A stretch of DNA of 64,000 nt, taken from contig OZ316892.1 of NCBI GenBank assembly GCA_973895155.1, forward strand, positions 13,022,238-13,086,237, read 5' to 3'. The DNA is from Marsupella aquatica (Eukaryota; Plantae; Marchantiophyta). The notes under the pieces were generated by a model that was given only the letters and a program-made list of their open reading frames with translations, searched no databases and was not told the origin of the DNA. The position numbers and the translations under genes were made by a program. Positions 12 through 34,181 of this stretch are shown in pieces. Positions within the stretch are counted from its first letter, which is position 1, and every line of letters begins with the position of its first letter.

Positions 12-3000
12 TTGACCATCGAGGAGGAGAACTATCTCTCCTGGACACTAGACGTCAAAGCTAACCTAATAGCTAAAGACATATACGAAACGATCATAAC
101 CGATCAGGGCACAACAACCCAACAGAAGGCGAGAGCCTTGGTGTTCATAAGACACCACCTCGTAGAACCACTAAAGCTACAATACCTTAACGAGGAAAAT
201 CCCCAAAACCTTTGGGATTAACTCAAGGAAAGATATGACCACATTAAGACCATACACCTGCCTAGAGCCCGCCACGACTGGGCTAACCTTCGCGTCCAAG
301 ACCATACATCTATAGTTAACTATAACAATGAGCTATTCCGCATCACATCCCAGTTGGCCCTGTGCGGCCAACCAGTCACCGACGAAGAACAAATAGAAAA
401 GACAGTATCAACCTTCCACTTAGGGAACATCATACTCTCGGCACAATATAGAAACATGAAGTTCACAAAATACTCTAAACTTATAGCTCACATGTTACTA
501 GCCGAGAGGCATCAGGAGTTACTATTGAAGAACTCCAAGATGCGACCCCCGGGAACCGTGCCAACACCCTCAACCACCAAGACAAACTTTGGAATGCCTT
601 CCAGTAGCAGAGGAGGCCAACGGGGCGGGTTCAGCCGCAACGGTAGACGACAGTTCAGAGGCGGAAGATCAACCTACCTTAGGGGGAGGGGCAAAGGCCA
701 CGGAGCTGAAGAAAGCCGCGGATGAGGAAGATCAAGCTTCAACTACACCCGTGGAGGATCGGAAAGACCAGGAAGACCAGCCCAACGGAGTAGTTCATCC
801 CAAAAATACTCAGGAAGACCCATCGTGGAGTGCTTCCAATGCGGCACCAAGGGCCACCCACAGAAATTGTGCCGCACACCGGCACATCTAGCAGAATTAT
901 ACCAGCAGAGTAGAAATAATAGAACTCAGGAGGTACATCATGGCACTTTTCTAGAGCAAGACAAACACCTAGAAAACTACACCCATGACGGGACTATCCC
1001 TGAGACACATATGATTACACATTAGCAAGATCCCTTACCTTTAGACAACATTAGATAGCGGCACGGCCCACACTACATTAAAGTGCAGGGACTATTTCAC
1101 TCACGTTACTCCCTCCCACAAAAACATGACTACTATCATGGGGAGTAACCAAATAGAAGAAGGTAACGAACCCGTCACAATCACGTTACCTCAGGGCACT
1201 ACTATCTATATTAACTCCGCTATATACGCATCTAATGCCACGAGAAACTTGATTAGTTTCAAGGACATTAGAGATAATGGATTCCATATCCACACTAGCA
1301 CAGATAAAAACCATGAAGTAATTCATATCTTAAATAATACTTCCGATGGAAAGCAAATAAAAGAAACACTTTTTGCGTATCCGTTGGGTTTCTATGTCAC
1401 ACAATTGAATGTTTTTCATTCCACTACGCATGAGATGTCACTATATGACCTTTGGCATACCAGGCTTGACCACCCTGGCATGACCATGTTTCAAAAGATG
1501 AAAAGAGTAACCCAAGGAATACCACAAAACGCACGCCCAACGAACCATAATCAGTCCTGCATGGCATGTTCTCAAGGAAAGTTAATCGTTAGACCCTCTA
1601 TCCCCAAGACAATCCACGAAATGCCCAGATTCTTGGAACGAGTGCATGCATATGTACGTGGCCCTATTGAACCACCAAGCGGACCATCTCAATTTTTCCT
1701 AGTCATTATTGCCGCATCCTCAAAATGGTCGCAAGTTTTGTTGCTTTCCACGTGAAACATGGTTTTTCCACAACTTTTAGCACACGTCCTTAAGCTAAAA
1801 GCTCAATTCCCTGAAAACCCTATCAAGACAATTAGGGTTGATAATGCAGGTGAATTCACTTCGAAAACATTCGAAGACTTCTGCATGGCTACAGGGATAG
1901 ACACTCAATACCCTGTACCTCACGTCCATTTCCAAAATGACATCGCTGAATCTGTCATTAAGAGAATACAGATGATAGCAAGACCCATGCTTATACAGAC
2001 ACAGTTACCCACAAGTGCTTGGGGTCACGCTATACTACATGCAACAGCTTTACTTAAATATCGCCCATCGGCATATAACGACCAAACTCCACACCACCTA
2101 GCCTTTGGAGTAGATCCTGACTTATCACATGTCAGAACTTTTGGCTGCCAAGTACTAGTCCCTATAATGGGACCCAAACGTACTAAAATGGGACCTCAAA
2201 GACAAAGGCATATATGTTGGTTTTGAGTCACCATCCATAATTAGGTACTTAGAACCATCAACTGTCGATGTCTTTCAAGCGAGGTTCCCTCACTACCATT
2301 TTTATGAGAATGTTTTCCCCAAACTATTCAAAGGGAAACCACAATTTGAACGACCTTGTAACCTAAAATTATGATGGCGGACTCAGTCCACTATTTGGAA
2401 CGATCCACGCACACGACAATGCGAAGAAGAAATCCGTAGGATATTACAACTAACAAAGACGGTGGAGAAAACGCCAGACACATTCACAGATATTCGCAGG
2501 TGATGAGATCACATATCCCTGTTGCAAATGCTCTTGCACGTCTACAAGAATCCACACAACTGACCACGGACTAACCACCAAGAGCAAAACATGGACGTCC
2601 TTTGGGATCTAAAGATACTCAACCAAGACAAAGAAAACAACAACAACAATATCACCTGTGATACCAGAAGTGGTATCCACACCAAGTCCTGGGGAAATCC
2701 CAGAAAATGAAAAAATCTCAATTCACTACATGAATACTGGGACCATATGGAATAGAAATAATATCCCCATGGACGACAACTTTGCTTACCACATTTCCCA
2801 AAATATCACAAATACACAACCTGACCCTAAAACAATCAATGAGGCACAGAAAAGCCTGAATTGGTCAGAATGGGAAAAGGCAATTAACTCAGAATTGGAT
2901 TTACTAATTAAACGCCAACTGTTTGGACCTATTGTCCCAGCACCACAAGATACCCACTCAGCGGATTATAAGTGACATTCGTGAAAAAGAGAAACACACA

Positions 3001-4464
3001 AGGCCAAGTTGCAAGATATAAAGCACGCATTGTCATGAAAGAATACACACAAATACCTGGGCCTGACTTTGACTTGACATATGCACCAGTGATGGATGCA
3101 ATGACCTATCGATACCTAGTTGGATTTTCCCTAGGTCATCGACTAAAAATGCATCAAATGGATGTTGTAACAACATATTTATATGGATTATTGGATACTA
3201 CGATATACATGAAAGCACCCCAGAACTAATAAAGAGACAAACATACCATATTCAGGGGGATCATAAGACAAAGCAAAACCCATCCACATCCACATCTCTA
3301 CCTTATACCACAAAAAGACCCCAGGAAGGGAAAACGGGGCAAGGTGGACCTATAGTCCATCAAACACCATGGAGTGAACCTATTGTCCTTCCTAAGAGCG
3401 GACCTATTGTTCCTCCAATACATAAATCCATGCCTCTGGCCAATGATGGATATGGTGTCCAGATCATTAGATCTTTATATGGACTCAAGCAAAGCGAAAG
3501 AATATGGTATCAGAGATTTAGAGATGAAATGCTGAATATGGGTTTTACTAATGACAATATTGCTCCTTGTTTATTCATTAAAAAACATGATGAGGAATTT
3601 TTAATAATTGCCATCTATGTAGATGATATTAAACTATTTGGACACCTAAACTTATTACAACACACCATTGAAATACTAAATCGTGTATTTGAGATGAAAG
3701 ACTTAGGCCAAACCCACTACTGTTTGGGCCTACAGTTCGAACACCTACCTGATGGTATACTTTTACACCAAAGCACTTACACTACAAAAATCCTCAAACA
3801 ATTCAACATGGACAAGGCACATCCTCTAACTTCTCCTATGGAAGTACGATCTCTAGACAGAGACAAGGATGCATTCAGGAAGAGAAACAAAAACGAACCA
3901 CTACTCGGTCCTGAAAAACCATACATATCAGCAATAGGAGCACTCATGTTTCTAGCCAACCAGACACGACCAGACATTTCCTTTGCAGTAAACCTACTAG
4001 CCAGACATGTATAGTGCACAACCCACCATACGCCACTGGAATGGCATAAAAAGAATAATGCGTTACCTTCAAGGAACTATTGATATGGGACTATATTTCC
4101 CTAATAACACTAATAAGACCTTAACAGGCTACGCGGACGCTGGATATTTATCAGACCCAGTCGACGCTAAATCACAGACTGGTTATGTATTTCTATATGG
4201 TACTACAACCATTTCTTGGAAAAACACTAAACAAACACTAACATTCACTTCATCTAACCACGCCGAGATTATTGCATTATACGAAGCCAGCAGAGAGTGT
4301 ATTTGGCTAAGAAGAGTAACCGACCATATTAATACAAATTGCGGCTTACCAGCACTAACCGAACCTACCAGCACTAACCAAACCTTTTGAGCAGGTCTCG
4401 AAAGGATTCATCAAAGGAGACCGCATCAAGCATATCGCACCAAAATTCTTCTTCACCCACGAAC
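12..4464 (+). pseudogene. copia gag-pol polyprotein pseudogene (many stops and frameshifts)
   Basis: ORF fragments 12-221, 354-725, 825-1025, 1126-1755, 1759-2226, 2658-3229, 3430-4014 and 4007-4390 are collinear pieces of one polyprotein. Confidence 0.93.
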
Positions 4465-4520
4465 GGGCCCGACCTCTGTGACAGGAAATAGGAAACAGTA
4501 ATGATCATAACAGGAAAAAG
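4465..4520 (+). repeat. Left degenerate TIR with ACAGGAAA/ACAGTAA subrepeats
   Basis: Matches the reverse complement of 16040-16098 from about position 10 (CTC..TGACAGGAAA..CATAACAG.AAAA). Confidence 0.8.
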
Positions 4521-4744
4521 AGTGGAACAAAATAGGAGAATTGGTACTATCATCCACAAAACACGGCACAATTCTCTACAAAACCAATGAGGTCAATTTC
4601 AACATGAAGTCCAATATGATGGGAAAAACAACAATTGTCGGACGACACGTTTACTAGCGCCAAGCACTACCCAAACGTTTGTTACCGTTACAAAACATCA
4701 TTGACTAAATACCCGTTCAACGTCTACTAGAATGGTCAGAATTC

Positions 4745-7700
4745 CTAAAAACCATGTGTATTCTTCATTCCTAAGATGTACTGGAGTTCACCAATAGTAA
4801 GAATTGGTTGGCTTGGTAATACCGAATCCAATGGATCCAGCTTAAAGACCATTTTGTAAACCCAGTACAAATGCTTACAAGGCATGAAAGGTCTTCCTCG
4901 AGAATGCCGGCGAAAGAAATCCTCACAAGAGCAGCATGGGAATATGAAAATCTACACCCAGTAAGTGTTTGCCATCCTCAAATGAGCGTGTGTTTGGATG
5001 CGGAATCGTTTCCCATAAGAGTTCCCTGAGGAGACGTCCAATTCTGTGATGAGAGTCATCGTTTCCTTAGCAGCAGATTCAACCCTTCTATGATATTCCT
5101 GAGTAAGATTTGATCTGGGGTTCATTGGGGGGCCGTTCCTAGTTTGAGAATGGATGTTGATTTGTGCCATATTGATCTTCTCAGGAAAAACATCAACATT
5201 GATTCTCAAATCAAAAGGAGTAGGGCTGGAGGCCATGCTTTGGTCTCGTGAGAGGATTACAACACCCTGTTCTTCAAGGAAACTTATCTCCAAGTTTGAC
5301 AGATTTGTTCCTTTCAGTATCGGCAAGGACATTGGATAAGGAGGCAGGTTTGCTATACCTCGACGTGGGTGACTCTTCCAACAATTTCCGTTGGGGCAAA
5401 ACCACACAAACTTTGCATGAGGTTCTCCTCTGAATAGGCGCTCGGGGGGGGTCACTTCCACGGAAGTGACACATCACGTGCGACGAAGTATAGGCCCATT
5501 TAAATGGGTGTGGCGGAAGACTTCCAAAGTTTGGTGGAAGAACACATAGGGCATGTTTTATTGATTGGTCGACTTTAAAGAACACATGGGCCTATTTAAT
5601 TGCAAAAAATACTTTCTATAAAGTTTTTAGGGGTTTTTTAATAGAAAATGACAAAATTTTAAGAAAGAAAGGGCTTTGCAAAAAAAAAAATTTCACTTTA
5701 AAGTTAGGGGGGTCAAACCCTAAAACGTTGCACGCGATGTATGACCCTCCATATAGTGACCCCCCCGAGAATAGGCGATGTCCTTTGACAACAACTCCGA
5801 TGACACCAGCATTGGAAGGATATCCAACCTTCTTAATCCGATTTCAACACTCATCACGATCGCATCTCCCTGACAATGTCCCGTTACACTGTGGGCCGGG
5901 CCCAAGTCTTGAAATTCGACGAAGATGCCAAGAACCGGGATCAACGTCCATCTCCAAAAGCGACATGTCAGGGACGACTGGATTTTGGTTAAAAGAGACT
6001 TATGGTAATATTGAAGATGCTCCACCTCGACCAGAAGGAGGTGCATCCTGCATGTCACCCGGGTCTTCTTCACTCCCAGTCAAATCGATCGGTGTTTCAG
6101 GAGTACTAAGTGGAATATGAGAAAACTGAGTAGAGTTCAGATTTCTGCGTTTCAAACCCCGTGTATTTGGTGTTGTTATCAAAATTGTGTCATGACGATG
6201 GGAGTCTTGGGCCGAGACATTCCCTGTCGTTGGACCTTTTCTTTTGATAGATTTGGTTACAAAATCACCGTTCAATGGAGAACTCCTCTCCAAATCGAAT
6301 TCCGCCGCATTAGCTAGTAGAAAATTAGAAGCCTCTTCGAACAATCGAGGGGACCCAGCCTGATTTGCAGAACGGAAAGCTAGTTCAAAAACCGTAGGAC
6401 TTGTACCTCTATGTAACCCATCACGGTAGGCAATATAGGCGGCAATTTGGGAGATTGCTCGATTGTGCTCAGTTTTGCACCCCTCAAATAAACCTACAGT
6501 TTTCTTCCCTTGCCAAGCTTTCATGATACCATGAATTGCCTCAGATCCTGTGCAATTGGGAATCATCCCTCCTTCTTGTGCACTTTTGCTCTGCAGGACG
6601 GCGTGGGTTGGTCAAATCTCGAATATTACTTTGGAAGACGTGATGATATTATCCATCAATACTTACAAATTAAAAGTAGCGCCGGGCGCTGTCAAAAAGG
6701 ATAAGAGAATTAAGCAAAATAGAGTCTTAATAGTAGCGCTCGGCGCTAGTTTAGAAGTATATGAGATATTGAAAAATGAAAAGGCCATGTCAATGTCATA
6801 CTCACAAGTCTGATAAAATTTCCCCACTGTCGCCATCTTACAACCCACCAAGAGATCCATCCTTGCAGCATCCAAAGCTTTCCAGGAACGCAATTTCCGG
6901 ATCTCCACCATAAATCAATCTCTCTAGAGATTCTATAGGCTTCAACAAAAGTTGATGCATTTCTGAGCTTATCCCAGAGGGTTCGATGCTCTGCACGTTT
7001 GTCTTCCAACACTCCTTCGATGGAATGGCGATGCAAAGATTGGTAAAAATGAAAAGCGTCTGATCTCTCCTTCTCTAGATTTGGATGGCCCCCAAAGAAA
7101 ATTTCTCACCGCAAGCCATCCCGCATGAGCATTGTCAACCATGAATCCGTGAATTTGAACATCATGTAACCCATTTTATGAAGCGACCTCAATCATCAAT
7201 CTCCAAGCTTTCTCAAGAGATTCAGTGTCCTCCGCTTTCAGCTCGCACGTAAATATTGTACATAACGCTTGATAGTTGTGGTCATAGACATGGGCACTGA
7301 AAGTGCTCCATTCTTTAGACATTCGATGCATGACATCAAAACTCACCCATGCTCCTTCAAGTGGCCCACCTTTTTTCATTTGTCGAAGTAGATCGACTCC
7401 AGATCCATGACCTTTGATTGTCATTTTGAAAATATGAGCACGGTCCTCCTTACAGCCTTGCCTTTGAACAAATGGAAACCTCACATTCTTCTGCATTCGA
7501 ACCAGATATTTAAGATCTCCACGACCAGCCTGATCTTTCCGGACGCTCTTAAACAAGGCAGAGAATTTCTGTGGAGTGGAAACAAGCATAAGTGACTGCC
7601 AAATCTCAGTCTCTTCCATCTTCGAAATGTCATGAACAGATTCATCTAGTGCATCCTTCAAAGTTCCAGTGACTGCATTTTTTACAACACAAGGCGCGAA

Positions 7701-8843
7701 AGAAGGATTCTTCAAGTGCTCTTTTCGAATCTCCTCGACCGCTATTTTCTCTGAACTTCTAGACCAAATCTTTTGACATGGATGATTATGTACACCCATG
7801 TGGATTGCGAGGCTTGACATATGTTGCACTGTCACCGAATCAAGCATGACTTGCGGGTACATGTAGAACATTTTTGCATGGCAAGAGTCCAGACAAAATG
7901 GGAGCTGCAGACAATAACGACAAACAATCCCTCCTACATCAATCAACTTTCCTGGACAATGTTGACCTCCTAACTTAGGGGTCCCTTCCCAAGATGAACA
8001 ATTCCTACCATTGGTTATGATATAAAACTCGCATGAATTGTTCCGACATTCTAGTGACCCGCTACAACTAACCTTCCCAAACTCCCACATCTTCTTAGGT
8101 AAGACATTGGCTGAAGTGGGGAAAATTCTAGTCCATAGATAGCAATCCTTTGACCGGTCCATGTTAAGGAGACGCTTTCCTTTTGAACCAACACAATCAA
8201 CAGGTGGAAGCTCAAATATGACATTGCCATTATAACTTCTGGAAAGCAATTCCACTTGCTCGTGCATGAAAACCTCCGATTTAACAAAGCGAGAAATCTC
8301 ACTTTGTCCAGATGATTTCAAAAGTGCATCTAACGCGCTTCGCCTATAGACGATAGTAACAGGCGGAGCTAAAAGAAGTGTATCAGATCCACTAATTGTT
8401 TTGTTCAATCCTGGAAAAACAAGAGGAACCCGTTCCTTTGATGAGCTCCCCTGATGTATTGGAACTGATTCTTCTCTCTTAATGTTTCCAACATTCATCA
8501 AAAAAGGAGATCCAAGGAATGAGTCGTCGCCTTCAGATGTGAGATTGATGACTTCCCTCGGTGCAATTACCTTCTCTAATTTAACACGAACATCATCTTT
8601 TCCTTTGAGGTATAGAGAGTAATCAACACCAATATGCAACTCCCAAAATTTCTCTCCTTGACTGTAATGGAAATGAGCTGTACAACCAGCAAATGTTCCT
8701 AAATTATCAATATCTTTCCTTCGCACATCAAATCTTGCGAAAAGATAATTCTCACTAACGCATTGAGTACCTGGTTGATTGGTCACAGGTACGGTAATCA
8801 CCTCACCTATCGCCGGACAACTTACTCTAATTACATGCTGCAT
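4745..8843 (-). pseudogene. MULE-like transposase pseudogene: GCM/WRKY-like Zn domain, DDE core, Cys-rich region, SWIM finger
   Basis: N-terminal CSGSLEC..C..CRYC..HMGVHNHP. Putative catalytic residues in FDVMHR, FMVDNA (~7140) and NCTGSEAIH, with a CxxH-equivalent SDAFH. GT-AG intron 6805-6591 joins NFIRL|SKSAQ in frame. C-terminal CSCEDF..PCKHLYWV SWIM at ~4860-4935. Stops at 7176, 6000 and 4952, frameshifts, and a MITE insertion. Confidence 0.82.
5441..5769. mobile_element. 329-bp MITE inserted in the transposase exon
   Basis: TIR CTCGGGGGGG(G)TCACT...AGTGACCCCCCCGAG and 8-bp TSD AATAGGCG (5433-5440, 5770-5777). Excision restores GVVVKGHRLF|RGEPHAKFVWFCP. Confidence 0.92.
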
Positions 8844-9881
8844 TGCGGAATATCATCGACCACAATGGTAAAATGAGAGTGTCGTGATAGTTTTAGTTTC
8901 TTATTTCACCGCTTCTAAGAAACTTCAACAAAGAAACCACCATATGACAATTTGAATTCCAATTTCATTACCGTTGATGCAACGGAAAAGTGACCAAAGA
9001 ATGGCGGCGGATGACCATTGGAAGCAAAATGTTTCCATTAGTTTAACGGCATCTTCAGCAATGGATATTAGTAGCGCCAAGCGCTAGCAAAAATTTCTTT
9101 TTTCATGCCACACAATAGGTGGAGATGAACGCAAAAATACGACAAGATGAGAGATATATTTACCCACAACATTGATAGCACTTGGCGCTATTATTAATAA
9201 TACATATTCATGTGTCCAAAAAGTGAAGAACTTTACGACCATTGTTGTATTTAGGGAATGAAATGGCATTTCAGAAATGATTTAATAATAGCATCGGGCG
9301 CTATTATGTTCTGGGCTTATTTTTATGGTAAGGGACCTTAATATCTCCCAGCGTGATTATGGAAATGTATGAAACTTAATGGTGATTTAGGTGTAATTTC
9401 TATAATAGCGTCGGGCGCTATTATACAGACTTGTCCGCTGTTGTGACCCAACGGATATTTATAACGATAACTTCATATCTTAGTGACTGTTTTATCCCTA
9501 AAGTGGCAAAGATTTAGAGACATCATTTAGATAATTTTGGTTCTGTTAATCATGACCGTTTAGAACATGTGACATGTGTCTCTTTCTTGTTGGTGTTGTC
9601 GCTCTTTTTGCTGTTTCTTTTCAGATCATGAAAAGTAAATATTTAAGTTGATCGACAATCTTTGATGGAAAGATTGTCGATCTTACATGTGAAAGGCCAA
9701 TTCAATATGTCCGATCATGTTTTGAGATTTGCTGTCCTCTCTGTCTTCCGGGAAAGAACGTGCTCCATGTTGTCTGTTTGCGACATGGAGCTCATCTATC
9801 CGGTCGCAGGATAACGTTGCAGACCTCTACGATTGGCTGAGAACATTCCCAACCTTACCGCCTTCTACTCTTTATCTAGAG

Positions 9882-12800
9882 ATGGACAATACTTCTCCCG
9901 GTAATTTTGAGACATCCGAGACTTCATTCTTTGGTTCTGTATACACTCGGGGAGTTACACGCTCAACTGCATCGCAGTCGCTTCGACATATTGGGCAGAC
10001 AGTTCCAAAGCAGAAACAAGGAGCCATGGAGAATTTCAGCAATTTTGTGATGGAGGACGGAAGCGAAGGGGCTCTGTCGATGGGTGATGTGATCGCAAAA
10101 CATGCGATGTCGTTTGAGACTGATTTCAGAGGAGAGCCTAAGGATCCCCCCCGTATACCGCTTTGTCGCTTAGTCAACATGGAAGTTGTTCAGACTCTGT
10201 AGAAGGAGAGCGCTTCGATCGAGAAGCTCAGAGATTCATTTTGGAGTTCTGGTTACAACTCCTCCATAGGGATGTGGTTCTATGTGCAACCCGCTGATTT
10301 TGAAGGGGTTATCCAATTCTGCACACTCAAAATTCGTGAGAGTTGGGATGCTATATGGGTTTCCCAGAATGAGAAATTTGAAGCGGACTGCGAAATGGAT
10401 CCCGATTTTCTTGTCTTCAAAGACAAGATGTTTTGTGTATTTGACGGGAATCATTGTCTCTATTCCTGGTTACAGATCACGGACGAAAACCCCAAAAATA
10501 TCAAGTACCATCCTCGTGTGCTTTGCACTGTATTCAAGGGAGATCGAGGCTCTCTCATCGAGATTGAGGCTGCAATGCACACAGTCAATCAGTAAGTTCC
10601 ATCATTTTCTTTCATTGAATGTCAAAAAGAATGAATATTTTTTTCAATGTTTGGCTAGCGCCTGGCGCTGATGATTTCCGTTTGGTTTCAGATTGGGACA
10701 AGCCGTGGTAGAACCGTCATGGATCTTGGATGCAGATCAAATCAATCAAATTCTGTCCCATGACCTTGATTATTATAAGGCAATCATTGACACAGGAAGC
10801 TTCAAACGATTCAAGGCGATTCAAGCGAAGACAAGGAAAGGCTCTTGGTATACCAAGAAGATGCCTTTGGAGGCTCTTGTTTACATCTTGTGTGAGAACA
10901 AGATCAAGTCATATTCTCTCCAGTTCAAAATGGACATGGCAACTGCAAACTCTCAAGGAAGGCCATGGTCAAAGGAGGAGGTCGCTAAGCGTCACGCAGC
11001 GATGATGAAGGAGGCCACAAAGGAATGGAGCGTGAAGACCTCAAAGATTACTCCTCTCCTAAGTCCTGAATTCAATAATTTTCTGTCAACTTGTGCAGAA
11101 ATGTACACTCTGACAGAAAAGAACAAGCGGGAATGGAAAGCAGAGTCCGTTGTTTGTACAATGGATCGTGCTCGACTCTTCATTGCTTTCTCCGCTTTGG
11201 ATCCGAAGTTGCGTTCTACTCTTCTTGTGGCACATTGCACACCTGAACTTCGAAAACAATTTTTCCATCCACCTAGTGTGAATGACGAACCTGTGAAGCA
11301 ATGGTGTCATACATGGCACATGTGGAGTTGGATAGAAGGAATTGCAATAGGGATGTTGCAGACTGCTCTCAGGGAGATAAGTAATCTGATCAGTTATCAG
11401 TCACTTTCATCAGTGTACCTGATATCAGCTGCCACCTCATCTTAGAGAGGCCGCCAAGTTGCGATGCGAGAGGAAAAAATGAAGAACAAAAAATCTTGAA
11501 TTTTTCTTCAAAATTTGAAGGAAAACCTCTCTTTTTTTCAAATTTTTTTTCGCCATGAGACATCCCTACCGTACGGACACCTATCTCGGCGAGCCCAGCC
11601 GAGATGGGAAAAAAAAAAATTCAAATTTTTTTGGGGGAAAATTTTTGGTTTTTTTTTTCCCACATTTTTTTGGATCCGTACGCCCCATCTCGGCGAGGCC
11701 AGCTGAGATGGGGAAAAAATCTTCAAATTTTTTTTTTTTCAGAATTTTTTTGGATTTTTTTTCGGTCCGTACGCCCATCTTGGCGAGGTCAGCCAAGATT
11801 GAATCAACCTCGGCTGCCCAACTAAGATGAGCGGAAGTTCGAAGGCCCCATCTCAACTCCTCAACTGAGATTCTAAAATTTTTGAGATAACTGATGATGT
11901 TGTGTACCCCCTCTCAGGCAAGTTGAATCAATCATGCCTCCCGAACGACTCGTGACAAGAGGAGTAGATACTTTTGATGGTTTGGTCCAGAGCATTTGTA
12001 ATGATTTCAGAATTTACGGAGATATTGTGAAGGCCAAGTTCTTCAACACAATGTGGGCTTCAAAGTATGGGGAGAAAGAAGATTTCACTACACGAAACCA
12101 GAAGCGGGCAAAGAGATATGTTTATCGGTTCTTCATGTCCATGGAGAGCGTTTTGCCTGAATACTTCTGGGCTTACCCTCCTGCATTCCAGAAGTGGTCT
12201 GTCATGGATGGGGATGCATTCAGCGAGGTTTACAGTATGTATCCGACAGATGGAACCAACCCTCCGCGTGACCTTTCTGAGTGGGAGAGAGAAAACTGTC
12301 CATGGTACCTCGATACTGATAAGTGGGATACACCTTTTGATGAATTTGAGAAAGACTCCTTTCTGAAATTGTCCAAATCTCTAGTTCCTCGCAAATTGCT
12401 GTCAGAAATGAAGGAAGGTTTAGTGGGAGATGTTGAAGCTTCAGCGGTTGAGCTTCAAAAAATTTGCGAGACAGAGGTCACACGTGTTGACCGAAGCCGA
12501 AAGCCACGCGCGAAAGTAAAAATGGATACAGGATTGAATAGCCCGTCGACACGATCTGGAAGAAAACGTAAGATGTTCAACTTATTGTTCTTCTGGTTTT
12601 TTTCATAGTTTTGGTTAGCGCCAAGCACTACTTTGAAATGTTAGATAGATACTCATAATTCTGTTCCAATTTATGTATACATTGGATGGCTAGCGCCAGG
12701 TGCTGGTATAGTTTCCTTTATTAATTTCTATTCATACTTTTTATAGGGGGAAGAAAATCAGAGGGAGAAGAAACGCAAGATGCAAAGACGACCATCACCC

Positions 12801-14188
12801 CAGAGCTCCGAAGCAAACACGGAGGCTGCTAACGCCTTGGAAGAACAAACTCCTCCAACCAATGCCAACATATCTCGTCCTGTTGATGCCACGAGCACAA
12901 GGAAAAAGAAGAAGAAGAACCACGATCTTGGTTCGATTGCGTCCACCGAGGTCCAACGAGAAGTTGGTCGATTCAATTCAAAGGTTAGCCGTCATAAGTT
13001 TGTTGAGTCCAGTGTTATGGAATTTTTTGAATCTGTGTTTACAAATGAGACCAAACCCGCATGGGTGATGACTGTTGAAAAGTGGGGGAAAGACTTAGTG
13101 GCACTTGGTCTTCGCGAGAAAGGCGTTGTAAGGGGAGGGAAGTTAAGAGCGTTTGGGGTAGATGCGGGGTTTGTGTATTTACCAACGGGGCTAAGACCTT
13201 CTTTGCTTCACCGGAAGTCGCCAAAGTGGAATGTCCCGGATCACCGAATTGTAGGTTCCTTTTTTCGGGCCATGGACCCATTTCTAGCCGATGATGGATT
13301 GTTAGCAGTTTGCACCTGGGGAGTACGACCAGATTTCCCAAGTTATTTCCGCAAGCCAAGAGTCCCAGAAGTTCCAGTGCCTGAAAACACTCAACGTTGT
13401 AATGGGCGTCCCAATGTACATGGCCAGAAGCGATTGTCAGGTAATTATCCTCATCTTTGATTATCTTTTTGGCTAGCGCTTGGCGCTAGTCATATATTCA
13501 ATTTCACGGTATTGAGTTTAGGGTTAAAGTCTTTATTTTTCGTCTGGTTTTTTGGTAGCGCCAGGCGCTACCCATGTCCCTTGTTATATATCTCATTTTT
13601 CTTGCTTACTTCACAGGTTTTCACCTTAAGACTTGACATCTTCAGTCGGGTTACATCGAAAGTCAGGGTTCCAAAGGATGTAAAGTTTAAGCCTTTGTCT
13701 GTAACTGAAGACCCTTCAATCACGAATCTCATTGGATTGCAAAGTCTCAAGAATGATCCTTCTCCTGAAGGTGCATTTGCTGGGAATGCTCGTCTGCCTG
13801 TCGGCTTCATGCAGTCTGTCCTTGAGTTAATTACGCATCCGGGAGATATTGTTATGGATTGGACGGTTGGTTCTGGGAGCACATTTGTTGCGGGTGACTT
13901 CTGTGGCCGTTTCATTCTTGGGATTGAAAATCGCAAGGAATTTGTGTCCATTGCTGAAAAGACGTTCAATGATCTTCTTCTCCCCAAAGAAGTGAGTGAG
14001 GCTGGTCCGAGCAAAGACCAGGGGAAAAAGTTAAGGACAAAGTTTGTTCTGTTGTGAATTTTGATTCCGAAGAAGAAGAAGCCGATGTTGGTGATGTGGA
14101 TGGTGGTGAAGATGTAGATAATGTAGAAGAGAAGAAGGAAGAGGGGAATGCAGAAGGAGAAACGGATGATTCAGATTCCTCAGAGTAA
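9882..14188 (+). pseudogene. Spliced accessory gene of the transposon: ParB/Srx-like N-terminal domain, N4C/N6A (beta-class-like) DNA methyltransferase-like domain, acidic tail; decayed
   Basis: Exons ~9882-10591, 10692-12567 (split by insertion 11374-11910), 12747-13440 and 13617-~14188, possibly with a further exon ~14290-14584; all introns GT-AG. Motifs: IPLCRLV..KMFCVFDGNHCLYSW (ParB-like DGxHR) and RLPVGFMQSVLELITHPGDIVMDWTVGSGSTFVAGDFCGRFILGIE (like the C-terminal SAM-binding block of N6_N4_Mtase). Stop at 10200 and frameshifts near 12747, 13320 and 14050. Confidence 0.75.
11374..11910. mobile_element. 537-bp non-autonomous element inserted in exon 2 of the accessory gene
   Basis: 8-bp TSD CTCTCAGG (11366-11373, 11911-11918) and imperfect TIRs sharing ATCAGTTATC. 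Three internal hairpin repeats CCATCTCGGCGAGGCCAGCYGAGATGG are separated by A/T tracts. Excision restores LQTALR|QVESIMPPERL in frame. Confidence 0.9.
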
Positions 14189-14595
14189 TGCCCGTAAGCT
14201 CCTTCACATTACATTACTATTTGTTTTCTTTGTTTTGTTTCAAACACATCAATTAAAGCCACGTACTTAGTGTTCTAACCAACTCGCAGGTCCGAGTGGA
14301 ATCTTCGCGAGAGGTTTCACCTACGAAGGAAATTTTCAAGGAAGGTTCTCATTACCCCGGAGAAACCATTTGTATTGCCTTCCTACGCCGAGTATGCCGC
14401 TCGCAAAGAAGAGAGCAGGAGAACCCTGACTTGGGAGCATAAAGGCTTGCAATTGAGACGAGGTTCGGATCAGAAGTTTATCCATCATCCTTTTGTCGAC
14501 GACATGGCACGGAATGAATTTGTAGACGATGAAGCAGAGTCTACAGATAGATCGGAGAGTAGTGGGTCAGAGTGTGCAGATTAGATTTGATTAGC

Positions 14596-14645
14596 TTAGA
14601 TTAGATTAGATTAGATTAGATTAGATTAGATTAGATTAGATTAGA
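14596..14645 (+). repeat. (TTAGA)10 microsatellite
   Basis: Read directly; lies just after the stop at 14584. Confidence 0.95.
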
Positions 14646-15071
14646 GTTTCACCGTTTGGTCAATTCCCCCCTCCAAAATAGTAGCGCCCGATGCTACTTA
14701 TTATTCATATGACGTGAAGCTGGATTAAGACAAGGTGGGCAATGTATGATGTTCCGTATATCCTTTTAGGAGGACAAATGTACTGAAATACTTAATTCAA
14801 CAGAAGTACCCGTACAAGTGTTTGTTTCCCTTCCGTAATGTCATTGCCTGTGGTACTCATTGATCTCAATGGACTGGTGTTTTCTCTGTATGCGTGATTG
14901 AAACGGAAACTTTTTCCCTTGCTCGAAATTGCATTGTTAGTCATTTCATTTAGACTCTCCCCTTTCGTCCCTCTCCTTTTGACAATTTGTAGGAGCTCTT
15001 GGAGGCCTTTGCCATTTACGCTTTTCGGTGTCAAGTCCTTTGAGAGACAAAAAGTCATTCGTGTAGTGACC

Positions 15072-15542
15072 ATGGACAAAGGGAAGCAGGTGAAACAAGA
15101 GAGGACTTCCCGCCTCACAAAGTTTGAGGGCAAAGCATCTGATGGTGATCTGTTTCCGAACTTCCCAATCGAAGATACTACTCACTCTGAGACATCGACT
15201 GAGCGGAATCGACTGTGGCTAGCCTCCGATGAGGGGATAAGTTTCCGATCAAAATCTATTCCTTCTACTCATTTATCGCCTCCCCGGTCTTTTCGAGAGC
15301 GTTTCTCTATTCACGATCCGGACCCTTCTGATCACTATGGGGTTGGAGGGACGCAATTTTTTAGGGACATTCAACAGTGGACTGGGCGAGTTGGATTCTC
15401 TTATTCGAACATATCAAATTGCAAGCTTAGGAGTCGCCTTCCAGGGCCGCATTTTTTTGCTGAGCGGGAGGATGGATTTCATCAAGATGACGATCGGTTC
15501 AATGCAGGACTCGATGATGAGTGTGGATCGTTGACATCCTGA
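15072..15542 (+). other. Possible third small gene of the transposon (unknown function, possibly frameshifted)
   Basis: MDKGKQVKQ... ORF with an overlapping alternative frame 15337-15534, flanked by palindromes at 14682 and 15579. No recognisable motif. Confidence 0.3.
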
Positions 15543-16039
15543 TCTTTAGGAAGTCTTTTTGCACACTCTCGTGATAGATAGTGCCCGGCGCTATCGCTAT
15601 TAAGAACAAAGGAGATAGGATTTTGTTTGTTCGGGATGTTCAGTTTGTAGGATACAGCTTTTTAGTTGTTAAGTCGATTCACTGTTCGCAACATCTCTAC
15701 ATATTCTGGAGTTTAAAGTTGTAAGAGGTATTGTCACCTTGCATAGCTTTTATTCCACAATGACACTCACTAGTCGGATTTAGGGATTTAGTGGCAAAAT
15801 GACACTCACTAGTCGGATTGTATGTCAATGACAATGAGTGTCTTGGGGATTAGTTTGTTCTTACCCGACCTCCTAGATGTTTTGGATTCTGTGACACCTT
15901 TTTTTGGAGTAGCGCCAGGCGCTACTAATACATGGAGCCATTTTTCTCAGGCTTTACTTTTGAACTTCGTTTTATAACTGTTCTCTCAAACCCTATTTTT
16001 ATTGATGGATGGCGAATGTTCAGAGTATAACCCCGTCTT

Positions 16040-16098
16040 CTTTTACTGTTATGTTTTCCTGTTTCCTGTTACTGTTTCCTGTCATGGAGAAAACCTCC
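16040..16098 (-). repeat. Right degenerate TIR
   Basis: TTTCCTGT/TTACTGT subrepeats ending ...TTCCTGTCATGGAGAAAACCTCC immediately before the TSD. Confidence 0.8.
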
Positions 16099-16248
16099 CA
16101 CGAACACCAAGGAGACACCATTCAAGTGAAGACAATTGCGAGCAAAGACAACCATGCAGATTTATTCACAAAAGCCTTGACTCTAGCACTACATACTATT
16201 CATTGTCAAGGCATAGGCTTAGGCAAACTATCAAAACTCAAAGATTAA
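16099..16248 (+). pseudogene. C-terminal end of the copia RNase H, resuming after the insertion
   Basis: Reads HEHQGDTIQVKTIASKDNHADLFTKAL...KLKD*. Removing 4465-16105 joins ...KFFFTHE|HQGDT... in frame. Confidence 0.93.
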
Positions 16249-20219: not shown

Positions 20220-22300
20220 CCCCAACCTATATGGTAGCTTACTTTTCACAAAAGAGAGTGTGTTGAAGAACCTCTCATCTTCAACTTACCCATTCACTAT
20301 GACCACCACAATTTCTTGAAGTTTAATCATTCACCCATCCCAGCTCTTATGAAAGGATTTGTCCCTGACCTCCTCCACATATGTGTCACGGGTTATCTTT
20401 GGGTTGAACTCCTGCTCTACCATGACCTTACTTTCAATGCCCTCCATTCTGAGCTTGAAGTAGCTCTGCTCTTCAAGCTCGGGCTTCAAGCTGCATGTTG
20501 AAATCCAAAACTGGACGAGTCACCTTGGTTTTGTCTCCTGCAACACCTCCATTTGACATTGTACTGGCCGACAGAAACCATCATTGATTACCTCCATGTA
20601 GAGCGCAAAATTCTTCTCGGCATCCTCTCCATCCCAGTACTGTGGATGCACAATTCCTAAGGCATTCAAGTGGTCAACATTAGGAAAGCAAGTATCCAAA
20701 ACTTATTTAATGCAGGATTTAATGACCTTTTGAGCTGCTTCCTTCCAGCGGTTTGTCACCAGCAGACTATTTACAAAGTATCTCATCAAACCAATGAGTT
20801 GGATATGTATGATCTGCCTTTCAAAAACTCCACTCTAGTTTCCAAATCAGTTTGACTGATTAGTGTGTGACTTGTTGGATACAATCTCTAGACAAGGAGC
20901 TAGTATCCCTAGTGTGAACGAGGTTTGCAAATCCACATAAAATCAATGAAGCTTGGCTTGACAGACTTTCACCGCATTGACGTAGTCTTGGATCAATACA
21001 TTTGAAGACTGTATAAACCGGATGAGACTATCCATAGACTTCAACAAAGGCAACACACAAGGCAAAGATAACAAAGTCTCCAGGTCCAACAAGGCAGCAC
21101 TATTTAGACTTTGTTGTCATAAAAGGCAACATTAGACAACCCCTACTCCACCAGTTTCTTGTATTCATGAAAAGCACTTTGCAATGGTGGTAACATCGAG
21201 GCTCAATGGATTTTGTGGTGTCCGCTGAATCTTGAGGCCCTGTGCCTTCAAGTCCTTTGCTAGTCATTGGACCTTGAGTTGCCGTTTGGGACTATATGCA
21301 AAATAGGCATGTAAATTGGTGATGAGATTCTCAAAGAATCCAACTTCTCCACACAAATATTTAGTTCTATGAACGCAACAATGTACGCCAATCATAAAGG
21401 AGCATTAATTACCACAATGCCGTCGAGATGGCCTTGGAAGACCGCAACACTTTGGACTAACAAGCTTTCAGGCTAGCTCATTCCAGCTCAGATTCCCAAT
21501 CTTAAGTCAAAGTATCCTTCAGAACAACAATGATGGCTTCAACATTAGCTCCAAACGAGCTTTTCCAAGGAGAGAATGGAAGGAACCCTTTCCAAGTTCT
21601 CTGTGATGTGAAAATGGACACTAAGCCACTGTTGATATATTGTAATAGTAGGTACCTCATCAGCTGAGGTAGATAGAACCGCATAGAAAAATAGTCTCTC
21701 TGGTCTTCAACTCCACTATGTGATAAATTCTCTCTACTATGCCCCAACCCGCAGTAATGCTCCAATGCGTTGTTAGGGTATCAAAAACTTTCAGCTGGTG
21801 AAGAGCTTTGCCAGGACATAATTGTTTATTGGGTGACCCAATGTCAGCAGCATGAAAAGGAAAACTGCACGAGTTTTTCTTTGACTATGACTTGGATCTA
21901 TTGATGGAGAGGATTGCGGGGGCAATGCAACAAAAGCTTTCTCATGTTGGGTGGAGCCCAAGAAATAGAACTTGCCCTTTGCAAAGTACTGGCCTTGAAC
22001 CACTATAGCGCTGATCAAGTCTCCTCCCTGCATGCTTCCATAGGCCGTTGATCTTTGGAACATGCAATTTATCCCTTCAATCTTTGAACAAATTGTGCAA
22101 CACACTTGCGTAACCTCTCCCTCTATGTTAAGTATAACAGCCCAAGGATGGACAACTGCCTGTCCTGGCTGGAAGTGCCTCTTCATCTCAGAGCTTTTTT
22201 TCCTATTCTTCACCACCTCCTCGTGCCACTCTCTAATGATGGGAGGGTGGACACCAATGGGCTTGCCTACACAGGTGACAACTTTATCCTTGGCTGGTGA
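20220..22300 (-). pseudogene. Highly decayed hAT-like transposase (Zn-finger N-terminus, hATC dimerisation C-terminus)
   Basis: Fragments across frames: HPWAV..VCCTICSKIEG..SLWKHAGRR (~22020-22150), SADEV..WLSVH (~21620-21670), AVFQG..FMIGVHC (~21380-21445), VEDERFFNTLSFVKSKL..RL (~20225-20290). Confidence 0.7.
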
Positions 22301-23222
22301 AGCAGCACCATGCCAGCCAATGATCTAGAGCCAAGAATTGCAAGGCTTGGGTGGCTCAGAAAGAAAGTACTTCACCATGAGGGTATTTGGGAGGCTAGCA
22401 CTTGTCTTAGTCATCTTGTTGCACTACTTATGCCTCACTCTTTCAAACAGATTGCCCAAAATAATCTCAACTTGCATGGAGCAATGAGATGTTACTAGCA
22501 GCAAGTCCTGAAAGCAATAAATTCAATGAAAAATTGTGAGGAGAGAAGGAAAATCTCTTGATGAAATAGATTGCAGTTGCAGCTGCATGTGTGCTCCCGC
22601 ATCACTGAAATGAGATCTGACGCTCCTGCTCACCCCCTGAAATGAGATCTTAGGCTACGGCTCACCCCCTGTCAGCTGATCCCCTTCTATTCATAGAGCA
22701 CTCCATTATTATTGCCAACACTTTTCAAACTTGCGCCATATAAGAAAGAGACAAAAACCAACAAAAAACAAAACATTGGCTGCACATTTTCAGGACAACT
22801 ATGAAGAATGCATATTAAATTCAACATCCTCCTGGCCCGGATGGAAAGGTGGAAAGAATAAACCAAGAAGTTTTGGGAATATGCAGTTGCCCAACCCTAA
22901 ACCCTAATACTGACCAGTGGCTGGTTGCCCAATGCCGGCTAAACCCTAAGTGGGAATGGTGTCAAATTTTGGTGATTGCATTTGGTGATTGCAAGCCAGT
23001 GAACGGTGGAATGGTAATGGTAATGGTAATGTATTATAAGCTCCGGGACCATGAAAGTCAAAGGAGCTGCCACAAAAAGTAAAGTACAATGCAATCAAAG
23101 AAAAGAGCAACCAAAAGAGATTGCTCAGAAGAGGACAACTATGTCCTCAAAGAAACTATGGACCTAGAGAGCCCTGAAAGATTTTCCAAACCTATTCTCC
23201 TTTCCCTATCCACCGCAAAGAT

Positions 23223-25700
23223 TTATCTTCCAAGTTGCTGAGGGGGCAGACCAAACAATGCATACAAATCTTTCACCAAGATTTGAGATGCCATCCTAAC
23301 CCCCTCATAAAACTTGCAAGCAATGAATACATGATATTCATTCTCTATACTAGAGCTATCACATAGTTGACAAACCCTCTTTTTCCTGTCAATATCCTTC
23401 CATCTCCCTTGTTCTACTTCAAGGTGGTGTGAGCTTAGTCTATACTGAGCAATAAGTTGTCTAAGTTGTACTGAGATAGTGCTAGATAAGTATTCTTGTT
23501 CTCGATATTTCTTCATGGGGTTCACATCTCTCATGTAGTATTGCTGCCGTGGGCTAGGTTCATGCCAAAGTTTGTGCAAAGCCTTTTGCTCAAGTTTTGC
23601 TCTTAGCTTGGTTGGGTGTGTTGGCCATTCATGTTCAGGAAAATCCCAAGCATGGGCCCACCTGCACACATCTGCATACCACCCTTTAGCTGAAGATGAG
23701 CGCAAGGCATGAAAAGGAAATCTGTTTTCCTCCAACTCTCTTACATGCATGATGTATTTGAGTGTGTGGAAGAGTGCCTCCACCTCCAAGGAAACAAGCC
23801 TGCCTCTGCAAGTGTAAGTGCATATGGGGTTTGTGACTTGATCCCAAGCTCCATCTCAAGAAATAGCTTTTGCAGCCCCTCAATCTGTTGCCACCCAGAT
23901 TTAGACACACCTGCTCCCCAAATTGGTGCTCTATAAAGAATGACTGGTTTCACCAAAGCTCCAAAGAGATGTTTCCTTAACCTCCAAGTGTGTAGACCAG
24001 CTCTTTTGCATTTGTTCATGAATGCATAAAAAGCTCTGTACCCATTGGCAGCCCTAGATTTTACACATGAGGCCCAACTCAAGTTTTGAGAGAACTCCAC
24101 CCCAAGGTATTTGTAGGTCCTCACAAATTCCACCAGATTCCCTTGGAAGTAGAGCTCTGGATTTTGTCGTGTGCCAATGCCCAAACACTTGGTCTTCTTG
24201 AGGTTGACTACCATCCCTGTTGCTTGACAAAACTCCTCCAAGGCATTGAGATGTCTTTGCAAAGCTTCTTGAGCATGAGCAAGTAGGACCACATCATCTG
24301 CAAATATAAGAAGTTGGAGGACAAACCTACCCAATTGAGTGCCCACTCCACCATGCTCCTCCAAAATGTTGTGTAGCTGATCAATGAAGATGCCAAAGAG
24401 AGTTGGTGAGAGAGGACAACCTTGGATCATCCCAAGAGTGCTCCAGATTTCTTCAGAGGTTTCCTTTGAAAGTTTGATGCGCACTTCTTGGTACAATTTA
24501 GAAACAGCTAACCTGAGCTCTTCAGGCACTTCCAACTCCACCATCCTATCCCAAAGCTTGGATCGGGAAACTTTGTCAAAGGCCTTGGAGAAGTCCACAA
24601 ACAAGCAAAATAATGGTTTATGTGGAGATTTGGCCTTTTCACACAACACCCTCAAGTAGAGAATGTGATCCATAGTGCTTAATTCTCTCCTAAAACCTGC
24701 TTGTGAAGGTGCCCTTTTCATCTCACTCTCCAACCAAGAGCTTAATCTGGCTTCAAGTAGTCCTCCCAAAACTTTAGCAAAAGTATTGCCTACCATGATG
24801 GTTCTGTAGTTGTGCACATCGTCCTTGTTGCCTGCCTTGAAGATAGGCACCACTCTTCTAGTCATCCAAGCTTTAGGTAAACCTAAAGCCATTGCTTGAT
24901 TCAGCTCATGCACCAAGTTTGTTAGTAAAGAGGGTCCTCCCCACAAAAGAAGCTCCAAGTTCAGGCCCAACAGATCTTTAGCTTTCCCATGTTGCATGTG
25001 GGAAAGATGCACCTTCACCTCCCTCTCTATAAACTGAATGGTGTCCCCAAGGGGCAAAGGCATGCCACTAGCATCTGGAAAGAAATACAAGGATGTGACA
25101 TAGGTTACCAGGTAGAAATACAAGGATGTGACATAGGTTACCAGGTCCTGGTGATCCAAGGGGGGAGTAGTCTTGCCTGATTGCATTCTCTCCCAAAAAC
25201 GTTTTGGATGTTTGATGAACTCCTCACATAGTGATTGTTGATGACTCTTCAAGAAGCACCTCTTCTTGTGTTTGATGAAATTCTTGTACATAGTGAATGC
25301 CAAAAGTCTCTTTTCCCCTGAATGTGATCTTGCTTGCATCCTCGCTCTAGCACAATCCTCGTCAAACCAAGCCTTCATGTTTTGCTTTCTAGGGGGTTTG
25401 GTGGAGAAAATAGAGGCTGCTGCTTGTGCTATGACTTCTGAGAGCTCAATCTGATCATCCAGGGTATGGAGAAGATGTTCAAAGTTGGCTTTGAAGATGA
25501 TTTCTCTATCAGGGTCTAGAAACAGAGGTTTGAGTATTGACTTTCTATGCACTTTGTTTGGGATTGTGATCAGGTCAAGATGGAACAACAAAGGCAAATG
25601 TGAAGACTCTGGTTGTTGATCAAGTATTTGAAAATCAACCACTCTAGTGACAGAGGTAGGTGACCAATGCCTTCGCCTTACCACACATGTGCTGACGAAC
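23223..25700 (-). mobile_element. Non-LTR retrotransposon (LINE) ORF2: RT plus C-terminal Cys/His domain; 5'-truncated or degenerate, one frameshift
   Basis: ORF 23741-25684 has PIFKAG..NYRTI, QAGFR, FVDFSKAFD, QGCPLSPTLF, FADD and YKYLG. ORF 23223-23789 has RLSSHHLEVEQGRW..CQLC..ENEYHVFIAC. A 33-bp tandem duplication sits at 25081-25146. Confidence 0.93.
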
Positions 25701-27354
25701 CCTTGTGTGCCAGAAGTGGAAGAGTGGCAAATGTGGCAAAGGTGAGAATAGTAGGTGGAATTTTGGATACAAAAATACTCTGGTGCAAACGGCTTCCCTT
25801 TACAGTGGCAGAAGGTGCTGCATGATCGTTTGCGTTGTTAACATAAGTACAAGGCATCAAGACCTCCTTAAAAACAGTAACCGAGAGAGCAATTTCTGTC
25901 AACTCATTAAATGGACATCATGTATGTTTACATCAAAGTGAAGAGAGAATGTTGTCCAGTGCAAAACTGTGTTGGGAGTTTTCAGGACCAAAGAAAAAAC
26001 AGCAGACCTGTTTGCTCAAGTTATTACAGGTAGGTAGCAATGTATGCCATCTAAGAGGTATAACATCATCACACTTTCTTTTTGTTCGAAGTGTTTAAGG
26101 TGTTCCAATTCTAATTCAAGAATTGTAAGGTAGTCTCCCTAGTGTTACTATTGCGATATTTGCTGACCTGGGTAAGAATGGAAGCACCCTCTGAAATACA
26201 CCACGATCATTCGATATAGGAATCTAAATTTTTTAACCAAACCATTTCATGCAGGTATGTTCTAGCAAACTGGGCCTGTCGAGATTTGAGACCTATCGTC
26301 CAGCCCACTCAAGTGTCCGCTAGAGGATTTCGGTGCTTTAGTCATGGCTCTTTGCAGGACAGTATGGTGGCATAGGATTACTCAAGTCGTCTACCCAGTA
26401 GTCCGCAAGAACTTGGAGCATCGGTCCGGCCTAAATAAACCAATATGGAATGTTCGACAAAACTCAGATGGACTCGGCGATGAGCGCTGACGACTAATTA
26501 TATACGTAACGATATCTTTATTATCTTCTTGCACGAATGATAGTGCGAACAGTTGATCCGAAAGAGGGAGGGGGCATCTGAGCCTCGATTACTGCTTCCC
26601 ACAAAAAACTTCATGAACCAGTGGTACTTGGGAACATTAGTTGGGAACACACCACTAAATGGCCATATCATTCAACACAGCAATGATGGTCCCCAATATC
26701 CAACATGCAAATACTAAGACGACGAATTCACAGAAATAAACTCTTTGTTCAAGTGTGGAACTTTATATACATTCACTTGGTTTACAGTACACCACATCGG
26801 AACAATCCAATGGTAAGGAGTCATGAATTTTGTCCTCTACCACTAGAGCCTTAGAATGAAGTGAAAATGATAAAAGCTACAAAGTGGAATAATTTATTTT
26901 GCGCCAGGAGAAATCCATCCACTTGCATGATGGGAGCGCCCCCATCCAAGGCTACCAACAAGATAAGCATCCAGAAGATTCCATGCCCAGCCAAAATACT
27001 GATTCCAACTTTAAAGCCTAACAGTAAAGCAGCAGACCAAGCCAAAAATATTGATTCCAACTTAGAAGCCCTACCAGTCCTGAATCTGGACTTCAAATGG
27101 TTTCATGGCGAGCCCAACTCTAGTCAAAACCCAGAGTTCCCAGCCCCATCCGCCCCAACTAGAGGAGAGAGTGTCTAAAGGTTACGGAAAGAGAGCTTAC
27201 TGAAAGATTCAAGTATCCGACAGAACACACTTAGCTCTTCTAGTGAACCCCCACCACCAAAGCCCTATTCTTTCCCAAAATTTACAAAAGTAAATGTGCC
27301 TCCATCAAACTCGTGCGTTCCTTCATGGTACTAAAGGGAAAAAAACCTCCCCGA

Positions 27355-33300: not shown

Positions 33301-34181
33301 ACGCCATGCAATCTGACTGGGACTTCCAAGCAAATTTCACACAGGCCGAATTTCGAAGGACAACGTTATCTTGGAAGCATCAAAATTTCAAGGAAGCTTA
33401 CATCGTACTGGTGAAGATCCTTATCAGGTAGTTCAGCGAAAAAGTGATTCGCCTTCACTATACACTTGGTGCCAGTCTGACCCTTGCCCGGACGAAGAGG
33501 AAACCTCAGAGCTCGGCTAGAGACCGGAGGGGTCTGTCTAACGGGAGACGATGGGCCCGGTTCTTCGACATGCAAGTCTTCCAGCGCCGTCGATATACTT
33601 AATTCTCCAACCTGAAGCGCTGCTATCGAAGATCCGCCAGCAGGAGAGAATCCAACATTGGCGGGTTGTGCACTAGCTGAAACTGGCTGTCTCGGAGAAA
33701 CATACGATGCTGCTTGCTGAGGTCCTCGTGATAAACTAGTATACACTTCACCAGAGCCGGACGGGGGATATGGCTGTGGTTGTCCAGTGGAAGAAAATCC
33801 AGACTGTGCAGGATGAACATGGGGACCTCTAGAACTTGAGCCATACGACCCTCCACCACCTCCCTGATAACCACCGCGACCTCCCTCCCGGCCCCTACCT
33901 CGACCGCCACCACCCTGCCGTCCCCTACCCCTGCCCTGTCCCCCACTTGGGACACCTTGCTGCGGTCCAGGCCCGAAACCTTGCTGAGTTCCGGGACCAG
34001 GATGAGGTCCACCTGGTGGACCTCGTCCTACACCACCAGCTTCATCTCTAACCTGTTGAACTGGTTCCTGAGTTGCGGATCGAGGAATAGGTGGTGCAGA
34101 CGAATCAGACGCAGACGCAGACGCAGACGCCTGTAAGGCAGCCTCCTCTATTTCCTTCGGAGTCCTCCGCTTCCGCGGCAT
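27355..34181 (-). CDS. AGO1: Argonaute 1-type protein, ~22 exons, apparently intact slicer
   Basis: Gly-rich first exon 34181-33402 ([23 protein letters not shown]), then N/PAZ/MID/PIWI exons with GT-AG introns ([66 protein letters not shown]). Last exon [22 protein letters not shown]. Catalytic D/D/H residues are present. Internal exon edges are approximate. Confidence 0.97.

Follow-up and report, generated by a model that had tools for sequence, protein, structure and literature searches.

In the Mutator-like VANDAL transposons of Arabidopsis, the accessory protein VANC binds short family-specific motifs, crowded in upstream and intronic non-coding DNA, and removes silencing (PMC5735166; this and the other papers are cited for the passages drawn on). 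The locus described here lies in a 64,000-nucleotide stretch of the genome of the liverwort Marsupella aquatica (hereafter the window). It has a comparable layout, with an accessory gene and short family-specific motifs concentrated in its upstream and intronic DNA. However, the motifs are palindromes of 14–22 bp, and the protein has predicted ParB-fold and methylase-like domains, the two systems being compared here by motif layout; Pfam gave no family common to both.

The motif II of ParB reads GERR, and ParB, Noc and KorB are CTP-binding clamps with parS palindromes. The domain that we study shares with these clamps the predicted fold, three motifs and repeated palindromes in cis. Yet, it has an insertion of about 45 residues between motifs I and II, shows DGNHR in place of GERR, and belongs to a eukaryotic gene with introns and a fused methylase-like tail, for which neither a helix-turn-helix nor a ParA was shown. 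Phage loci in ParB-terminase neighbourhoods also combine a ParB-type domain with an N6/N4 amino-methylase of group 1, or beta (PMC4738411). Here, in contrast, the two domains are some 600 residues apart and the catalytic aromatic residue is mostly lost, and the ParB part had no close relative among phages or prokaryotes in searches that see near relatives only. The same source catalogues the amino-methylases of eukaryotes, traces some of them to phage ParB loci and states that land plants have few; the passages drawn on name no transposon-borne plant ParB-methylase, and its supplements may list the family.

Beta-class amino-methylases of bacterial origin are known in eukaryotes. Two of them, DN4MT1 of Marchantia and N4CMT of bdelloids, are genes of the host that have an SPPY-type motif and for which 4mC activity was shown (10.1101/2021.02.12.428880; PMC8885841), whereas the region described here is transposon cargo, has a D-[ILMV]-P-x motif and stands behind a predicted N-terminal ParB-fold domain. 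Finally, DUF3723 is a conserved accessory gene of fungal Starships, of unexplained function (10.1101/2021.12.13.472469; 10.1101/2025.02.28.640899). It is the nearest look-alike of our domain in a protein language-model comparison (score 0.96, 189 of 256 features), but none of 100 family members matched its Pfam model (PF12520) at E 0.1, and Starships use a tyrosine recombinase. Since this comparison is of features, without an alignment, we take it as a lead only. A full-text literature search, with most subscription papers outside its reach, returned no paper on the family and none in which DUF3723 and ParB occur together.

Our results show that the M. aquatica element is a Mutator-like variant with unusual conserved cargo. 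Transposons with an accessory gene that joins a predicted ParB-fold domain to a DNA-methylase-like one of bacterial type form a family that is widespread in liverworts and ferns, of which the M. aquatica copy is a broken member.

The transposon and its accessory gene

The element spans positions 4465–16096 of the window (11,632 bp) and interrupts a Copia element in its RNase H region. It is flanked by a 9-bp target-site duplication, CCCACGAAC, at 4456–4464 and 16097–16105, and its inverted ends, each some 200 bp long, are imperfect. The length of the duplication and the long inverted ends fit the Mutator-like elements (duplications of 8–11 bp and long inverted ends; PMC6446971). Copia domains precede the transposon and the Copia RNase H frame picks up again to its right. 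The decayed retrotransposon, cut in two by the DNA transposon, covers 222–4464 and 16106–16230.

The transposase gene (4748–8852, reverse strand), delimited from relatives, alignment and frames, is broken by stops and a frameshift. It encodes a Cys/His-rich N-terminal part, an acidic core (FD...GFMVDNA...DAFH), a later GSEAIH and a SWIM-like finger, for which the Pfam match is weak (E 0.79). Fourteen relatives were found at E 0.001; the acidic core and the DAFH motif are conserved in their alignment, and D, D and DxxH are conserved in the window and the relatives. The Pfam MULE domain matched neither the window transposase nor any of these 14 relatives, and the catalytic motifs of the former are presumably of the MULE type. 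The right part of the element also includes a 214-codon open frame with no Pfam match (14898–15542, forward strand), possibly a third gene or a further exon.

The accessory gene (9882 to about 14590, forward strand) is divergent from the transposase gene and collinear with proteins of Riccia, the longest of which has 1244 residues. Its protein comprises, in order, a disordered N-terminus, the ParB-like domain, a helical region, a charged linker, the methylase-like domain and an acidic tail. Exon 1 (9882–10591) includes the predicted ParB/Srx-fold domain, which starts around 10143. The first-pass annotation had carried this piece on to 10760, which has to be corrected: a GTAAGT donor follows 10591, the acceptor of intron 1 (10592–10691) precedes 10692, and exon 2 begins in a different frame. 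Exon 2 (10692–12567), collinear with the Riccia proteins, encodes the all-helical region and is interrupted by a 545-bp non-coding insertion (11374–11918) with an 8-bp duplication, CTCTCAGG, across which the reading frame is unbroken. Exon 3 (12747–13440) encodes the charged linker and then the methylase-like strand 4 motif, YLPT at 13176–13187 where Riccia has DLPT or DMPS. Exon 4 (13617–14057) covers the region of the methylase SAM-binding motif I, with DWTVGSGST near 13851–13883. A probable last coding piece (14290–14590) has a weak resemblance to the Riccia acidic tail (best tblastn E 0.006). An (AGATT)n microsatellite lies right behind the gene (14578–14650).

This copy of the gene is dead, a pseudogene, because it has a premature stop, Gln and Cys in place of two ParB arginines, the 545-bp insertion, two frameshifts and a Tyr in place of the methylase Asp. 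The frame from 9882 reads RIPLCRLVNMEVVQTL*KESASIEKLRDSFWSSGY...KMFCVFDGNHCLYSW...AAMHTVNQ, exactly as the first-pass annotation had claimed, with a TAG at 10200–10202. That this stop is a decayed CAG was borne out by the many related copies, which we compared in contigs of four sequencing runs over 9700–14300. Among the differences listed (40 of 980), most of their depth reads C at 10200 in all four runs: 157/175.5, 842.9/917.7, 206.5/206.5 and 1109.5/1538.5. Motif I has Gln (CAG, 10191–10193) where relatives have Arg, motif II (10443–10457) reads DGNHC instead of the DGNHR of the family, with its Cys encoded by TGT at 10455, and the Asn of motif III (10587–10589) is kept. The frameshifts in exon 3 are near 12805 and 13315, and other copies have extra letters at both sites. 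An intron at 11381–11917 was ruled out by the phases and by the other copies, which place an insertion inside the exon; two runs have contigs that lack it, and the depth over it is up to tenfold higher. The insertion is a high-copy, non-coding sequence with its own repeated palindrome of the CCATCTCGGC...GCCGAGATGG type.

The ParB/Srx-like domain and its family

A full scan identified 182 related protein clusters at E 0.001, of which 150 are listed, and motifs were counted over 148 of the latter after removal of two simple repeats (P0096 and P0140). Organism names were attached to 11 of the 28 relatives checked, seven being Riccia sorocarpa and four Adiantum. The family consensus retains three ParB/sulfiredoxin motifs (V-R, DGNH-R and N). 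These have the residues given for ParB-superfamily domains, namely an Arg in motif I, GxxR in motif II and an Asn in motif III (PMC12065111). Among relatives covering each site, the motif I Arg is found in 92 of 110, the Gly and the Arg of motif II in 128 of 137 and 110 of 135, and the Asn of motif III in 92 of 96. The exceptions are mostly Gln, Cys, His or Trp, as would be expected from CpG decay. The consensus of motif II is [DE]GNHR (82 DGNHR and 15 EGNHR among 151 sequences), which agrees with the earlier proposal that the DGNHC of the window derives from DGNHR and that the family keeps DGxHR. The idea of a ParB-like accessory gene stood as well; the methylase-like 3' end, the conserved pairing with a transposase and further lesions, including the lost motif I Arg, go beyond it.

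The fold searches used models of two intact relatives, P0002 (mean pLDDT 87.5) and P0019, rather than the window's own protein. The first-pass annotation had predicted a ParB/Srx-like structure, and structures of this fold were indeed the first matches of both models. In a structure search against 48,161 chains they took the top eight places (Z from 7.5 to 4.6; 3.5 in the next row): KorB (Z 7.5, rmsd 2.6, 92 aligned), PadC (7.0), two sulfiredoxins (6.1 for Srx), ParB-N (5.7), SerK (5.3), Atu1540 and SbnI. The best of these Z values falls below the level that the tool deems safe by itself. In the Foldseek search of the PDB, the top nine rows were ParB, KorB, Noc and PadC, led by ParB-CDP (probability 0.97, E 0.048). 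Among viral models phage ParB proteins came first (E 1.3e-3), with a phage ParB-methylase at rank 8. None of the three Foldseek searches gave a match at E 0.001, and the second model of the pair gave the same ParB/Srx-fold matches. No single score is decisive, but the agreement of the scores with the motifs makes the predicted ParB/Srx fold highly probable.

Sequence searches returned little for this domain. Pfam ParB_N matched none of 100 family members at E 0.1, Pfam and PHROGs gave no ParB match, and a profile search of PDB sequences produced one chance row. Searches that detect near relatives only gave 48 pattern matches in viral contigs and 43 in prokaryote genomes, none of them confirmed, and one row, at E 3, in annotated phages. 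A word-based search for longer relatives of the ParB part found none, but it is a weak method and is contradicted by the 182 clusters of the full scan. The atlas look-alikes of the P0002 domain in language-model comparisons were clusters of fungal DUF3723 (0.96), cnidarian clusters (0.95) and a ParB_N cluster (0.92). The cnidarian clusters might represent an animal branch of the family. A FastTree analysis of 46 rows of the ParB core groups the window, at moderate support, with Riccia sequences and unnamed proteins. Over this tree, palindrome types are scattered or follow kin, and are thus uninformative on co-evolution. The ParB-fold and the methylase-like domains are each probably of prokaryotic or phage origin.

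Palindromes and conserved arrangement

The element contains 15 copies of the palindrome TAGCGCC-N-GGCGCTA between 4655 and 15924, all outside the coding pieces (starts at 4655, 6677, 6734, 9072, 9176, 9289, 9406, 10656, 12616, 12691, 13474, 13556, 14682, 15579 and 15910). The remaining 52 kb of the window have none, and 30 simulations gave 0–1. The mismatches to the palindrome are C>T or G>A in 16 of 19 cases, the trace expected from host 5mC. Two palindromes, about 190 bp from each end, lie within both inverted ends, and two others are in the transposase intron, positions that would suit a transposase site and count against binding by the accessory protein.

Relatives carry other palindromes, and the motif varies between families. 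A metagenome scan retained 80 of 134 loci, corresponding to 48 distinct places; the palindrome of the window is absent from these 80 loci at two mismatches. Copies of the locus-specific palindromes number 17 in L008 (two of them in an intron), 6 in L010, 10 in L023, 7 in L031 and 6 in L055. Of 24 distinct loci, 15 have at least three copies of a repeated palindrome in the 2 kb upstream of the ParB match. Such clusters occur in 3 of 43 far windows taken from these loci, and in 0 of 25 blocks of the M. aquatica window that lie outside the element. The corresponding Fisher p of 1.8e-6 (15/24 vs 3/43) is overstated, because the loci are kin and not independent. Nine of the 24 loci lack such a cluster, including the intact L006 in a whole-locus scan. 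In L008 the copies form a tandem array upstream of the gene, about 138 bp apart (2046–3943 of that locus). A 25-bp tandem array with a palindromic core, in 27 copies, lies about 2.2–3.4 kb downstream of the ParB match in L017.

The gene arrangement of the window recurs in these loci. A divergent relative of the transposase lies upstream in 8 of the 16 distinct loci with at least 5 kb of upstream sequence and was not found in the other eight, a downstream match in L053 being left out of the count. The methylase strand-4 exon follows on the same strand in 16 of the 21 loci with at least 3.5 kb downstream, although five of these 16 seeded the profile (best E of 1.1 in the reversed-sequence control). 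Methylase motif I was detected in the window and, among the metagenome loci, only in L006. Most of the metagenome loci are decayed. The intact relatives are nevertheless shown by their substitution ratios to be under purifying selection (dN/dS of 0.03–0.11 in six pairs among L008, L009, L011 and L012); the ratio is 0.32 in the close pair L015/L019.

The methylase-like domain and candidate functions

The layout of the locus parallels that of VANDAL/VANC. We tentatively suggest that the intact accessory protein is a VANC-like self-regulator, which would bind the palindromes of its own element, with the ParB-fold domain as a switch that responds to a bound nucleotide. Its binding to the repeated palindromes would keep the element transcribed or accessible despite host silencing. 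The ParB-fold domain may bind a nucleoside triphosphate through the two arginines and the Asn, and this could act as the switch for loading on, or release from, the DNA. The palindrome might be read by the helical region or by the methylase-like domain, probably as a dimer. The helical region is entirely so in the model, and Foldseek alignments of the ParB domain extend into it with high rmsd; no helix-turn-helix was demonstrated there, and this middle region had no match in the atlas. A two-copy complex prediction of residues 95–445 of P0019, made with the alignment unused, scored 0.00 with an uncertain fold. The methylase-like domain would be mostly a DNA- or SAM-binding scaffold rather than a standard writer, because the base-stacking aromatic is usually missing. 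It counts against the self-regulator that the transposase of a Mutator element is able, by itself, to bind the element's ends and reduce methylation (10.64898/2026.08.24.746577).

The accessory protein might instead work as an amino-methylase and mark the element with 4mC or 6mA. The ParB-fold domain would then serve as its loader or sensor, on the model of the phage ParB-methylase loci. Exon 4 matches Pfam PF01555 above the cut-off (E 1.9e-9), with Riccia relatives just below it, as well as solved beta-class enzymes (DpnA-type, CcrM and MboIIA structures) and phage methylases (323 phage records), and the methylase-like region is common to 13 Riccia proteins. The strand-4 motif precedes the SAM-binding motif I, which is the order of beta-class N6A/N4C DNA methyltransferases, and the first three positions of D-[ILMV]-P-x align with the DIPY of a Gordonia phage methylase. 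There is also precedent in the liverwort 4mC writers of bacterial origin (10.1101/2021.02.12.428880; see also PMC8885841), and one of the fold matches is a phage ParB-methylase. Yet, the catalytic (D/N/S)-P-P-(Y/F/W), with its aromatic fourth residue, is not the rule in this family. In 29 homologous motifs (13 loci and 16 proteins, several near-identical), the fourth residue is aromatic three times (DIPW twice, DVPF once) and S, T, R, E, G or K in the other 26, the window having YLPT, and the Phe that is usual in motif I is missing from both the window and L006. Catalysis by this domain is doubtful because the aromatic is kept in so few motifs. Moreover, the mismatches of the palindromes bear the trace expected of host 5mC. 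We therefore regard an active writer as unlikely.

The position of palindromes in both inverted ends, where they are symmetric, raises the alternative that they are transposase sites. The accessory protein would then aid transposition as an NTP-dependent clamp or bridge, by pairing ends over 11 kb or by capturing the target. This would fit the best structural matches, the CTP-binding clamps ParB, KorB and Noc, and the description of maize mudrB as required for integration (PMC6446971). But the palindromes of relatives cluster beside the accessory gene or within its introns, which puts several kb between them and the transposase, and the fold is common to sulfiredoxin and kinases, so that a match to it does not point to clamps in particular. 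On balance, such a helper seems improbable.

The ParB/Srx domain might also have a catalytic role, as an NTPase, kinase or nuclease, in base modification or counter-defence and on a substrate unrelated to the palindromes. Sulfiredoxin, SerK and SbnI are among its structural matches, Pfam has weak matches to DndB and DUF1015 (2 of 100 members each), and DUF262-type ParB domains serve as modification sensors (PMC12065111). However, this would leave the family-specific palindromes beside the gene unexplained, and we think it quite unlikely.

In an equally speculative extension, which we would call a long shot, a ParB-parS-like device of prokaryotic origin would be at work in the transposons of seed-free plants. 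Its clamp, gated by a nucleotide, would load at the palindromes of its own element and spread along that element, and the methylase domain would overcome 5mC silencing by writing or reading a mark foreign to the host. The ParB-type domain would also head DUF3723, uniting plant, Starship and animal elements through one unrecognised accessory module of ParB type. Finally, a coincidental ParB resemblance, the domain being a new alpha/beta fold with a DGNHR motif, would agree with the lack of Pfam ParB_N, PDB sequence and low-E Foldseek matches, but it is highly improbable given that three structure searches and the language-model search agree and that the three motifs follow the ParB order.

ParB-fold nucleotide switches are a hallmark of prokaryotes, and here a large family under selection, predicted to have this fold, sits on nuclear DNA transposons of plants together with family-specific palindromes. 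If the accessory protein is the palindrome-binding self-regulator that we favor, it would be a second way for transposons to counter silencing, unrelated to the first, and programmable epigenome tools with sequence specificity might be derived from it. It would also offer a direct test for the function of the Starship DUF3723, and it flags liverworts and ferns as places to seek transposon-borne 4mC or 6mA.

The rest of the window has features of its own. Remnants of a LINE-type reverse transcriptase lie at 21794–25837 on the reverse strand (RVT_1 E 4e-31, zf-RVT weak) and are strongly CpG-depleted. On the same strand, 33369–34196 has a weak match to the Argonaute N-terminal domain (E 0.0018) and is possibly an exon of an Argonaute gene. 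An uninterrupted 430-codon frame for uroporphyrinogen decarboxylase is found at 51812–53104 on the forward strand (URO-D E 2e-117); since it has no intron in the matched part, it is perhaps a retrocopy or a foreign gene.
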